A stretch of DNA of 64,000 bases, taken from NCBI RefSeq assembly GCF_003334405.1, contig NZ_QOWM01000002.1. One strand, given 5' to 3'. A model generated the notes under the pieces. That model was not told the origin of the DNA, searched no databases, and saw only the letters and a list, made by a program, of their open reading frames with translations. Source of the DNA: Escherichia coli (GTDB taxonomy: Bacteria; Pseudomonadota; Gammaproteobacteria; Enterobacterales; Enterobacteriaceae). Below, piece by piece: positions 18,308 through 21,691 of the stretch (positions are counted from its first letter, which is position 1; each line of letters opens with the position of its first letter). A program made the position numbers and the translations under genes.

Positions 18308-19117
18308 ATGAGTAATACCGACGCTTCAGGTGAGAAGCGAGTGACTGGCACCAGCGAGCGACGAGAACAGATCATTCAGCGTCTGCGACAGCAAGGGAGT
18401 GTGCAGGTTAACGATCTGTCGGCATTGTATGGCGTATCTACTGTGACGATCCGCAACGATCTGGCGTTTCTGGAAAAGCAGGGGATCGCTGTGCGTGCCT
18501 ATGGTGGCGCGTTGATCTGCGATAGCACGACGCCGTCAGTCGAGCCATCAGTGGAAGATAAAAGCGCACTGAACACCGCGATGAAACGCAGCGTTGCGAA
18601 AGCTGCCGTTGAGTTGATTCAGCCAGGTCATCGGGTTATCCTCGATTCCGGGACCACCACTTTTGAGATTGCTCGTCTGATGCGCAAGCACACTGACGTA
18701 ATTGCGATGACCAACGGTATGAACGTGGCTAATGCGTTGCTGGAAGCGGAAGGCGTTGAGCTGCTGATGACCGGCGGGCATTTGCGCCGTCAGTCGCAAT
18801 CTTTTTACGGCGATCAGGCTGAGCAATCGCTGCAAAATTACCACTTCGATATGCTGTTTCTTGGTGTAGATGCGATCGATCTGGAGCGCGGCGTCAGCAC
18901 ACATAATGAAGATGAAGCTCGTTTAAACCGTCGGATGTGCGAAGTTGCGGAACGGATCATCGTGGTCACCGATTCCAGTAAGTTCAATCGTTCCAGTTTA
19001 CATAAGATCATTGATACTCAACGTATCGACATGATCATTGTTGATGAAGGCATTCCTGCGGATAGCCTGGAAGGACTGCGAAAGGCTGGGGTTGAAGTGA
19101 TTCTGGTCGGGGAGTGA
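18308..19117 (+). CDS. agaR: DeoR-family repressor of the aga locus
   Basis: 269-aa ORF with N-terminal HTH (…[28 protein letters not shown]…) and DeoR C-terminal domain. Confidence 0.9.
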
Positions 19118-19171
19118 GAAAGGATGCCCGCTGGTCAACACGAATGCGTTCGGCGGGCATTGTGAACACCA

Positions 19172-19636
19172 TCAATGGGTTTCTTCTGTTTCTCGGGTGA
19201 GGGTTTCCCAGTCGGCAGGAGGATGTCCTCTTTTTAACATTTTGCTGAATACGGTATAGGCATCTGTTTTTTTACCGTAGGTGCGCAGAGTGTTTTCATC
19301 GTTCATCCATCCCAGAATGATGACTTTCTCTTTTTCACTATAACGAAAGAAGAGACGATAACGACCAGCACCAAATTTTACCCGTGACCAGTCTTTATTT
19401 TTCCCAGAGCCTAACGACTTGCCATGACGGAATGCCGGTGATGATGGATTGACCGTGATATGCTCCTCAATCACTTTATGGACTACCGCCAATAACTTTG
19501 TGGCGGCTTTTCTCTGATAATTTTCAGGATCTTTTCCCTTTAATGTCTCGACTTCGGCAACTAAAGCGTCGTAGGTTTCCTGAAAACAGGGATGAGCATA
19601 TAGCGCCCAACCATTAACCCTTTGTGGAAAATCCAT
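19172..19636 (-). CDS. yhaV: Type II toxin YhaV (ribosome-dependent mRNA endoribonuclease)
   Basis: 154-aa ORF MDFPQRVNGWALYAHPCFQETYDALVAEVETLKGKD...; its start overlaps the prlF stop (TAATG). Confidence 0.9.
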   Translation of the reverse strand: MDFPQRVNGWALYAHPCFQETYDALVAEVETLKGKDPENYQRKAATKLLAVVHKVIEEHITVNPSSPAFRHGKSLGSGKNKDWSRVKFGAGRYRLFFRYSEKEKVIILGWMNDENTLRTYGKKTDAYTVFSKMLKRGHPPADWETLTRETEETH

Positions 19637-19971
19637 TATTCGTCGTCGCCAATCTCATCATCAATGTTGACGTCCATGCCAGCGACAAGTTTCTTTCCTT
19701 GTTGAATGTTGAATGGACGAGTTTTTTGCGGGTTGTTCTGGATATCTGCATCCAGAAAACGCAAAAATGCATTCATAGTATGATCCTCCTGTTCATCTCC
19801 CAGTCGGCACATAAATACTTGCCCACCAGGCAGAATTTCGTAATGAATGCTGTCCTGGCCTGGCTTCAGTTTTAAGGCCTCACGCACTGGCGCGGGGATA
19901 GTTGTTTGTCCGCGTATCGTGACCTTTGATTCAGTGGTCAGTACAGCGTGAGAGCGAGCATTAGCGGGCAT
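19636..19971 (-). CDS. prlF: Type II antitoxin PrlF (SohA), AbrB/SpoVT-like
   Basis: 111-aa ORF MPANARSHAVLTTESKVTIRGQTTIPAPVREALKLKPGQ... with an acidic C-terminus. Confidence 0.9.
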   Translation of the reverse strand: MPANARSHAVLTTESKVTIRGQTTIPAPVREALKLKPGQDSIHYEILPGGQVFMCRLGDEQEDHTMNAFLRFLDADIQNNPQKTRPFNIQQGKKLVAGMDVNIDDEIGDDE

Positions 19972-20070
19972 GATTCACTGTCCTTTTACAGCCTGTTTTC
20001 TGCTCAAATTATAAGCTTGAACTAAGGTAATGCAAATGCATTATTAATGGACGTGGGGGCTTTAAACAAT

Positions 20071-20097
20071 AAAAACATGGCACTAAGGCCATGTTTT
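20071..20097 (-). terminator. Intrinsic terminator after garD
   Basis: Hairpin catggc / gccatg with 6-nt loop, A-run on the plus side giving a U-tract on the minus-strand transcript. Confidence 0.55.
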
Positions 20098-20119
20098 GCG
20101 AGGGACGTTCCAAAAGAAA

Positions 20120-21691
20120 TCAGGTCACCGGTGCCGGGTTAAACACCGCCAGCTGGTTATGCAGCCCCCATTGATCCGAGAAGGTTTTCTTCTTCCCGCT
20201 GGCGACGTCGAGAATAAAGTGGAACAACTTCCAGCCCACCTCTTCAATAGTTTCTTCGCCGGTAGCGATGGTGCCCGCATTAATATCCATTAAATCAAAC
20301 CAGCGGTTCGCCAGCTCGGTGCGGGTTGCCATTTTAATGACGGGTACCGCCATCAGGCCGTACGGCGTACCACGACCGGTCGTAAACACTTGCACTGTGA
20401 TACCCGAAGCCACCTGTTGCGTGCCACAGACAAAATCGCTGGCTGGCGTCGCGGCGTAAATTAATCCGCGTTTAGTCGGGCGTTGACCGGGCGACAGCAC
20501 TTCAACAATTGCGCTTTTACCCGATTTAGCAATGGAGCCGAGTGCCTTCTCTACCACGTTTGCCAGACCGCCTTTCTTGTTGCCCGGCGAAGGGTTGGCG
20601 CTGCGGTCGGTTTTTCCCATATTGAGATAGTTATCGTACCACTCCATCTCCTCCAGCAGCCGTTTGCCGACCTCTTCGTTCACTGCGCGTGGTGTCAGCA
20701 GATGGATCGCGTCACGCACTTCCGTTACTTCTGAAAACATCACCGTTGCGCCGCAGCGCACCAGTAGATCAGACGCATAGCCAACCGCCGGGTTTGCCGT
20801 TACACCAGAAAACGCATCGCTGCCACCGCACTGCATACCAACGACCAGTTCTGAAGCCGGGCAGGTTTCTCGCTGCCGTTGATTCAGTTTTTGTAGATGG
20901 CGTTCGGCGATCTGCAAAATATCCTCGACCATGGACTGAAAACCGACATGCTTTTCATCCTGCAAACTGACAATGCTGGCGCTTTCTACTGGAATAGCTT
21001 GCACATCATCCGTTCCAGTCAGCAGGCGCTCAGGCTGCAACTTTTCACAACCCAGGCCAATCACCATTACTTCGCCGCCAAAGTTAGGATTCAGCGAAAT
21101 ATTGTGAATGGTACGGATAGGTACAACTGCCGCCGGTGCGTTAATCGCCACGCCACAACCGTACAAATGATTCAGCCCCACCACGCCATCGACGTTCGGG
21201 TATTTCGGTAGCAGATCGCGTTCAATGATTTTTACTACATAGTCCACCACGCCTGCCACACAGTGGACGCTGGTGGTGATACCGAGCAGGTTTTTGGTGC
21301 CCACGCTGCCATCGGCATTGCGATAGCCCTCAAAGGTGTATCCTTCCAGCGGCGGTAAGGGTTCCGGGACTTTGGTTGCCAGTGGCAGCGTGTGTAACGG
21401 CGGCGCTTCCGGTAGTACAACCATTGATTCGTCGATCCAGCTTCCGCGTGGGATTGCACGCACGGCGTAACCAATCACTTCGCCATAACGAATAATTTCA
21501 CCATTAGCCGGAATGTCCAGCAATGCGACTTTATGCCCCTGGGGAATATGTTCAATTAATTCCAGCCCATCCGGAAAACGCGTTCCTGCTTTCAGGCCAT
21601 TATCATTAACAATAATTGCCACATTATCTGTGTCGTGAACTTTTATATAAAACGCAGTTGGCGTTTCTTGTCTGATTTCGATGTTGGCCAT
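20120..21691 (-). CDS. garD: Galactarate dehydratase
   Basis: 523-aa [42 protein letters not shown]..., SAF/altronate-dehydratase-like architecture; divergent from garP. Confidence 0.95.

Follow-up and report, generated by a model that had tools for sequence, protein, structure and literature searches.

A prlF-yhaV toxin-antitoxin locus identical to that of Escherichia coli K-12 MG1655, and natural copy-number variation of a heptamer repeat in the antitoxin gene

The two genes that fill positions 19172 to 19971 of the window, by which we mean the whole 64-kb stretch of Escherichia coli DNA that was analyzed, are almost certainly the chromosomal prlF-yhaV type II toxin-antitoxin (TA) operon of E. 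coli K-12 in its intact, wild-type form. We found no sequence feature that speaks against this reading. The module was described in 2007 and is already known, and the allele in this window is an ordinary wild-type one. As given, the finding is a correct annotation of a known module and matters little; the pair still serves to mark where the aga and gar clusters meet.

Results

The locus is identical to prlF-yhaV of K-12 MG1655

The span is filled exactly by two open reading frames on the minus strand, with prlF (also called sohA; 19636-19971, 111 amino acids) upstream of yhaV (19172-19636, 154 amino acids). The former encodes the antitoxin and autorepressor and the latter a ribonuclease toxin with a predicted RelE/ParE fold; RefSeq lists the products on identical DNA as WP_001307405.1 and WP_000347273.1, respectively. 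An earlier note on this DNA had placed the pair at precisely these coordinates, antitoxin gene first and toxin gene second, and the reading frames agree with it on both points; the strand, which it did not give, is minus. The stop/start overlap that it described as coupling the two genes is likewise present. At the junction (GACGACGAATAATGGATTTTCC on the coding strand), the TAA of prlF and the ATG of yhaV form the motif TAATG at 19634..19638 (minus strand), with a single base, 19636, in common. Genes for 111 and 154 amino acids on the same strand, a 1-nt overlap, and a single promoter-like site upstream together give the locus the layout of a type II TA operon. The pair lies between the aga and gar clusters, as had been claimed, with agaR (18308-19117, plus strand) and garD (20120-21691, minus strand) as its flanking genes.

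A query of 1031 nt comprising prlF-yhaV and the intergenic region on either side matches the MG1655 chromosome at 100% identity; there, RefSeq names the products “type II toxin-antitoxin system antitoxin PrlF” and “ribonuclease toxin YhaV,” and garD and agaR are again the neighbors. We see no difference between the window and the PrlF-YhaV (SohA-YhaV) system of that strain. This identity provides the alignment to characterized PrlF and YhaV that had been suggested as a check and, along with strong matches to family models, bears out the claim that the module is a known one. PrlF scores 170 bits over residues 1-111 against the NCBIfam equivalog NF007429 (cut-off, 125) and matches Pfam PF15937 at 7.2e-42 over residues 14-110. 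YhaV matches Pfam PF11663 (Toxin_YhaV) at 8.9e-54, with residues 12-150 aligned to model positions 1-137 of 138. The N terminus of PrlF also scores 27.1 bits against the AbrB-type model TIGR01439, just below the cut-off of 28.3, and residues 16-39 match PF04014 (MazE_antitoxin) weakly (E = 0.0023). No NCBIfam model matched YhaV or the HigB and HigA proteins encoded elsewhere in the window, and the identity of these three was taken from Pfam and from the RefSeq annotation of identical DNA. Judged from sequence, the family matches and the MG1655 identity of prlF-yhaV lie far beyond chance. The locus is held by 5,168 of 5,426 complete E. coli genomes (~95%).

A conserved palindrome covers the predicted -35 element of the prlF promoter

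Upstream of prlF, a promoter scan returned a sigma-70-type promoter candidate at 20008..20036 (minus strand), consisting of a -35 element TTTGCA (20036..20031), a 17-nt spacer, and a -10 element TATAAT (20013..20008). This candidate matches at 10 of 12 positions and is the best of 4 sites in the region; it predicts that transcription begins ~7 nt beyond the TATAAT. Its -35 element is covered by a perfect palindrome, TAATGCA-N2-TGCATTA (20028-20043), which is separated by 1 nt from the half-site TCCATTA (20045-20051, coding strand). Palindrome and half-site together make up the probable PrlF-YhaV operator (20028..20051). The palindrome is unique in the window even with 2 mismatches allowed.

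For comparison, we retrieved loci whose YhaV homologues show no more than 48-57% identity (3 distinct loci, L012/L013 and L014 among them). Upstream of the prlF homologue, L012/L013 carries TAATGCAATTGCATTA-A-TAATGCAATTGCATTA and L014 carries GTAATGCACTTGCATTG-CA-CAATGCAGATGCATTAC; the operator motif occurs twice in tandem, with 1-2 nt spacing as here, upstream of prlF homologues whose toxins are 48-53% identical. Because both the motif and its tandem arrangement are conserved across distant homologues, TAATGCA-N2-TGCATTA is supported as an operator. At the level of sequence, the locus thus shows what autoregulation through a promoter operator requires: a perfect palindrome over the -35 element, with no second match in the window and with counterparts in front of remote prlF homologues. 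The PrlF-YhaV complex has been reported to repress its own operon (PMC12107188) and, in a passage of PMC7781912 that cites Schmidt 2007, to bind a palindrome in the prlF promoter and dimerize cooperatively there. The operator is probably exactly the palindrome at 20028-20043, and repression would act by occlusion of the -35 element.

Translation signals differ between the two genes. A Shine-Dalgarno sequence, AAGGA, lies 9 nt before the prlF ATG (19981..19985, minus strand), and we read no good Shine-Dalgarno sequence upstream of the yhaV ATG (CATTGATGATGAGATTGGCGACGACGAATAATG). The presence of AAGGA before prlF, the lack of a comparable site before yhaV, and the UAAUG overlap point to translation of yhaV by termination-reinitiation. 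This agrees with the single prlF-yhaV transcript that has been reported (PMC5535158, PMC12107188) and with the higher predicted translation of the antitoxin, at an antitoxin:toxin RNA ratio of 1.11 (PMC5535158). The order PrlF then YhaV is found in all three of the distinct homologous loci, where the genes are 5-25 nt apart; the overlap is thus a feature of the E. coli copy and not of the family.

Taken with published work, these elements suggest how the module most probably works. One promoter ~40-70 nt upstream of prlF would yield a bicistronic mRNA, from which PrlF would be translated using its own AAGGA ribosome-binding site and YhaV would be made by ribosomes that finish prlF at its UAA and begin again at the AUG that overlaps it, a coupling that would keep toxin output at or below antitoxin output. 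YhaV, as an endoribonuclease of RelE/ParE fold, would cleave mRNAs undergoing translation on the ribosome, in frame and with a preference for sites before G, and cause a reversible growth stop. PrlF, with a probable N-terminal DNA-binding domain of AbrB/MazE type and an acidic C-terminal region, would bind and neutralize YhaV, and the complex, seated on the palindrome and adjacent half-site overlapping the -35 element, would repress the operon. The two TTCAACA units near the 3' end of prlF would be prone to slippage, and the gain of one unit, the frameshift prlF1, would abolish autorepression and uncouple yhaV. What this scheme says of toxicity and its rescue, of cleavage on the ribosome, of stoichiometry and DNA binding, and of the phenotypes of prlF1 comes from published work. 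The toxicity of MG1655 YhaV and its relief by PrlF were reported with both toxin and antitoxin amplified from that strain (PMC8546651).

A heptamer repeat in prlF varies in copy number among natural isolates

Tandem Repeats Finder reported a heptamer tract (TGTTGAA, 2.3 copies) at 19700..19715 (minus strand), which reads (TTCAACA)x2.3 on the coding strand and is a slippage hot spot; its two full copies are nt 259-272 of prlF. Duplication of this 7-bp unit is the prlF1 event, which has been selected recurrently in laboratory evolution (PMC7686311, PMC12107188, PMC11838884, PMC12323667) and is reported to raise Lon activity, reduce ompF, and make cells tolerant to beta-lactams (PMC12107188, PMC7686311). 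As computed here, an allele with 3 copies shifts into the +1 frame, replaces the last 21 residues of PrlF with HSTRKETCRWHGRQH, and ends translation 25 nt before the yhaV ATG. These changes account for both the lost repression and the polarity on yhaV that has been reported. In the window, prlF is the ordinary allele with 2 copies. A 17-bp hairpin within the prlF reading frame (19723-19767; -17 kcal/mol, z = -3.26) was considered as an mRNA element or promoter of slippage and is probably incidental; we dropped it because the gene has a stronger structure and the homologues lack the hairpin at the corresponding position.

We searched complete E. coli genomes with synthetic 3-, 5-, and 1-copy alleles and read all 20 variant loci. 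The repeat has grown to between 3 and 19 copies in 20 of 5,156 complete genomes: 11 genomes carry 3 copies, and 4, 5, 6, 7, 9, 11, 12, 14, and 19 copies are found in one genome each. The three longest arrays belong to strains AREA_497 (19 copies), SCU-106 (14), and MB06234 (12). The 1-copy contraction allele was found in none of the genomes searched. All 20 expanded arrays are perfect. Fourteen of the alleles are in the +1 frame and 3 in the +2 frame, and the remaining 3 stay in frame with FNIQHST inserts. yhaV is annotated as intact in 19 of the 20 strains; the exception is a strain with 3 copies, whose yhaV is interrupted by an IS66-family element.

The only lead of note in this analysis is that the prlF heptamer varies in copy number in nature and does so mostly within one haplotype. 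All but 2 of the 20 expanded alleles differ by at most 1 SNP from one local haplotype, whose YhaV is WP_000347279.1, WP_000347266.1 or, in FORC_042, WP_024216030.1. A YhaV allele set against that of K-12 in this context carries A11V/T145S/L146F/R148Q/T153N. This haplotype group makes up 26% of genomes (binomial P = 3.5e-9, a nominal value uncorrected for strain relatedness). Local haplotypes that are almost identical carry different copy numbers. Over 60 nt to either side of the tract, the two haplotypes have the same sequence; thus, local sequence does not explain the bias. In the literature we covered, which is partial, the matches concerned laboratory 2-to-3 events only, and we found no paper on long natural TTCAACA arrays.

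Beyond its role as a laboratory hot spot, (TTCAACA)n in natural E. coli could be a contingency-type, possibly reversible, hypermutable switch, an idea that we put forward tentatively and judge more apt to be wrong than right by a wide measure. If it were true, copy number would toggle PrlF among an intact form, two frameshifted forms, and forms with in-frame FNIQHST inserts, would reset operon autorepression, YhaV coupling, Lon activity, and OmpF level, and would yield subpopulations tolerant to beta-lactams and other stresses. The interest of the observation is that a heptanucleotide repeat in an antitoxin gene reaches up to 19 copies in isolates when the gain of one unit is known to lead to multidrug and beta-lactam tolerance in the laboratory.

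The same alleles bear on what the locus is for. Its main role might be regulatory, with PrlF modulating the Lon protease and the quality control of proteins or of the envelope and with the TA behavior secondary. In prlF1 mutants and on overproduction of PrlF, Lon activity rises and the defects of degP and LamB-LacZ strains are suppressed (PMC5408214, PMC7781912), and the repeated laboratory selection of the 7-bp duplication and the expanded alleles in complete genomes, both described above, fit such a role. However, no mechanism has been established for the link between PrlF and Lon (PMC12107188), and the two-gene module and its operator are conserved in unrelated genomic contexts, including beside conjugation genes, a distribution more in keeping with a mobile TA unit that is complete in itself than with a host regulator. 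We consider a mainly regulatory role unlikely, while giving it more credence than any of the other alternatives discussed below. The regulatory and TA readings are compatible and not mutually exclusive.

YhaV retains all conserved family residues and is predicted to have a RelE-like fold

Returning to prlF-yhaV as a TA operon, we asked which residues its toxin shares with its family. Among 1.84 billion representative proteins, 980 relatives of YhaV were found at E up to 0.001, and 61 full-length members with 34-79% identity to the query were aligned. P64, N112, and R118 are invariant among these 61 members, and all three are present in the window protein. Residues conserved in at least 90% of the members are also present, namely W10, G72, W83, R85, K87, R94, L95, F96, and F97 and, further along the chain, I106, W110, D113, D125, Y127, F130, P140, and L146. 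Replacement of two conserved arginines abolishes YhaV activity, as related from Schmidt 2007 in a passage of PMC5408214. A PDB sequence search returned no PrlF or YhaV relatives, and the assignment of catalytic residues therefore rests on conservation and on mutagenesis described in secondary sources. The earlier note had named inactivating substitutions in the catalytic residues as what would refute it; since this yhaV is the K-12 wild type, there are none.

An AlphaFold model of YhaV built on the 61-member alignment has a mean pLDDT of 96.1 and a pTM of 0.90. In a Foldseek search of this model against the PDB, ranks 1-42 were all toxins of the RelE/ParE superfamily (PfiT, HigB2, RelE, YoeB, and ParE), with PfiT 9w3a as the best match (E = 1.4e-4), RelE from both E. 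coli and M. tuberculosis, and the HigB structures 5ifg and 6kml among them. According to the model, YhaV has a RelE-like fold (the BECR fold of PMC11980606), with helices packed on an antiparallel sheet. Two PDB entries were set aside. ThreeFoil, the only sub-threshold match in the sequence search (E = 0.0023), is a repeat artifact, and 2KHE, given as “YhaV monomer” in a review figure (PMC7781912), is Thermus RelE (Foldseek rank 21) and not YhaV.

RelBE of E. coli is, like prlF-yhaV, an antitoxin-first operon, and the modeled fold of its toxin's counterpart here matches RelE structures 4fxh, 4fxe, 4v7j, and 4v7k with target-normalized TM-scores of 0.53-0.76 (4fxe, 0.76). RelE and YhaV share no significant sequence similarity; an hhalign comparison of the YhaV family with E. 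coli RelE was not significant (probability 0.9, E = 0.063) and gave a 23-column local match. In this match, a locally alignable basic motif places RelE K52/K54/R61 opposite YhaV R85/K87/R94, equivalences that we treat as a lead and not a result because the alignment is not significant. The YhaV family is thus joined to RelE by predicted fold and not by sequence profile. YhaV is also longer (154 amino acids, versus 95 for RelE), its model showing long helices and an additional pair of strands at the N terminus, and RelB is a ribbon-helix-helix antitoxin whereas PrlF appears to be of AbrB/MazE type.

The fold also bears on how YhaV cuts RNA. YhaV could be a free, ribosome-independent RNase acting on mRNA and rRNA rather than an mRNA interferase of the ribosomal A site, as the first biochemical study suggested when it found mRNA and 16S and 23S rRNA cut in vitro without ribosomes (PMC5408214; a table in PMC8546651 lists both outcomes). 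However, transcriptome-wide mapping in MG1655 showed mRNAs cut with sub-codon phasing, a bias toward the 5' part of open reading frames, and a preference for G after the cut, as with RelE and HigB (PMC8546651), and passages in PMC7781912 and PMC11980606 that cite Choi 2017 describe translation-dependent cleavage and class YhaV as ribosome dependent. The predicted fold likewise matches the ribosome-dependent toxins RelE, HigB, and YoeB. On this evidence, the ribosome-independent reading seems improbable, and we favor in-frame cleavage on the ribosome.

The MazEF system of E. coli resembles prlF-yhaV on the antitoxin side. PrlF and MazE would have in common a swapped-hairpin DNA-binding domain of MazE-like type, to which the weak matches to PF04014 and TIGR01439 point, and an acidic C-terminal toxin-binding tail. 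The toxins differ: the fold of MazF (MazF/CcdB) is unrelated to the RelE/ParE fold predicted for YhaV. MazF is ribosome independent and specific for ACA. The two systems also form heterohexamers with a 2:4 antitoxin:toxin ratio, which for this module is PrlF2-YhaV4 in a passage of PMC7781912 that cites Schmidt 2007.

The window contains a second type II TA pair

The window carries another type II pair, as had been pointed out. higB (62405-62719, plus strand; Pfam HigB_toxin, 4e-22) and higA (62716-63132, plus strand) overlap, and both bear these RefSeq names on a 100% identical record. HigBA (62405-63132) resembles prlF-yhaV in having overlapping genes and a toxin of the RelE/ParE superfamily; unlike PrlF-YhaV, it has the toxin gene first and a helix-turn-helix antitoxin. 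A comparison of YhaV with HigB detected no sequence similarity. The pairs also differ in their relation to defense models, since HigB and HigA match the PADLOC PD-Lambda-2 A and B models, respectively, whereas none of the PADLOC defense models matches PrlF or YhaV.

The lack of a PADLOC match for either protein argues against a reading of prlF-yhaV as an anti-phage abortive-infection module, and our search of the literature found no report of phage protection by the pair. Many modules of the RelE/ParE superfamily have been linked to defense (PMC11980606). Moreover, the G+C contents of prlF (47.6%) and yhaV (43.9%) are below the 52-53% of their neighbors, which suggests acquisition, and about 5% of E. 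coli genomes lack the locus. We regard a role in phage defense as highly improbable. That the window copy is a decayed, non-functional remnant has virtually no chance of being correct and is already refuted by identity to K-12: the disruptions we saw (IS1 in yhaV, an IS66-family element in yhaV, and frameshifted prlF alleles) lie elsewhere, and in the window, which offers this idea no support, both reading frames are full length, identical to the experimentally active K-12 genes, and complete in their conserved residues.

Hairpins flank the operon on both sides

The remaining features concern the ends of the operon as the intact K-12 module. Downstream, agaR is a convergent neighbor, and its 3' end faces that of yhaV across 54 nt. 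This gap contains an inverted repeat with an 8-bp stem (19124..19160), followed by CCUUUCUC when read in the direction of yhaV. The fold has a computed energy of -21.2 kcal/mol but a z score of only -1.86, and the terminator scan did not call it; it is possibly, and at best, a weak terminator for yhaV and/or agaR. Two terminator-like sites inside the genes (19609..19593 and 19832..19820) were discarded, their number being within chance expectation.

Upstream, a hairpin terminator of garD had been described just before prlF, with garD said to be convergent. The hairpin is there (20097..20072), but garD is not convergent: it lies on the same minus strand as prlF, directly upstream and co-directional, in tandem. 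The intrinsic terminator, identified by the terminator scan and as an inverted repeat (20072..20097, minus strand; AAAACATGGC-N6-GCCATGTTTT, then TATTGTTT), has a perfect 10-bp G+C-containing stem followed by a T run and is located 23 nt past the garD stop codon and ~100 nt before the prlF start. In this position, it would insulate the prlF promoter from garD read-through.

Copy number of a heptamer in prlF

In the window, prlF carries two copies of the heptamer TTCAACA (19700-19715). Among 5,156 complete Escherichia coli genomes we found 20 in which this tract is expanded, and every array is perfect (loci L003-L010 and L017-L028, where the tract begins at locus position 761). Eleven of these genomes have three copies, the known prlF1 duplication, and copy numbers of 4, 5, 6, 7, 9, 11, 12, 14, and 19 occur in one genome each; no one-copy allele was present in the complete E. 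coli genomes searched. The reading frame is shifted by +1 in 14 of the expanded alleles and by +2 in three, and it is maintained in the remaining three.

When the loci were compared with window positions 18940-20473, 18 of the 20 expanded alleles fell within a single local haplotype group, which encodes YhaV as WP_000347279.1, WP_000347266.1, or WP_024216030.1 and accounts for only 26% of genomes (nominal P = 3.5e-9, uncorrected for strain relatedness). The 60 nt on each flank of the tract in the expanded loci are identical to the K-12 sequence, so nearby sequence does not account for this bias. We also considered a functional role for an interrupted 17-bp hairpin inside prlF (19723-19767, minus strand; -17 kcal/mol, z = -3.26), which lies 9 nt upstream of the tract. 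This hairpin is probably incidental, since stronger structure is found elsewhere in prlF and no counterpart is conserved in the homologues.

Natural disruptions, homologues, and genomic context of the module

The toxin gene yhaV is interrupted by IS1 in strain YZLc1-3 and by an IS66-family element in strain PSS-15, and in strain EC23HZZ201 an IS1-bounded deletion extending from just past garD to yraI removes both prlF-yhaV and the aga cluster. These natural disruptions resemble the IS insertions in yhaV that are obtained under chemostat selection (PMC5960147).

The probable operator TAATGCA-N2-TGCATTA is kept upstream of the gene pair in homologous loci with toxins of about 50% identity (L012 and L013, both at 2016-2048; L014, 184-219). 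It is arranged there as two tandem palindromes, whereas E. coli has one palindrome and a half-site (window 20028-20051). In a further locus, L011, a yhaV homologue (2152-2495, 57% identical) adjoins conjugation genes, one for a TraI relaxase/helicase and one of the thioredoxin family that is DsbA/ScsC-like. Its prlF is split into two open reading frames of 37 and 77 amino acids, through a frameshift or else an error in the assembly.

Neither PrlF nor YhaV matched a PADLOC defense model. In the second type II pair (62405-63132), HigB matched PD-Lambda-2_A at 2e-15 and HigA matched PD-Lambda-2_B at 8e-15, the latter covering only positions 7-118 of the 402-position model. No tRNA genes were found within the 64-kb window, and the RNase P RNA gene rnpB (26381-26757, plus strand; RF00010, 318.6 bits) is its only Rfam family above threshold.

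The G+C contents of prlF (47.6%) and yhaV (43.9%), which together span 19172-19971, are lower than those of garD (52.9%), agaR (52.2%), and the entire window (50.0%). This composition is consistent with horizontal acquisition of the module between the aga and gar clusters.
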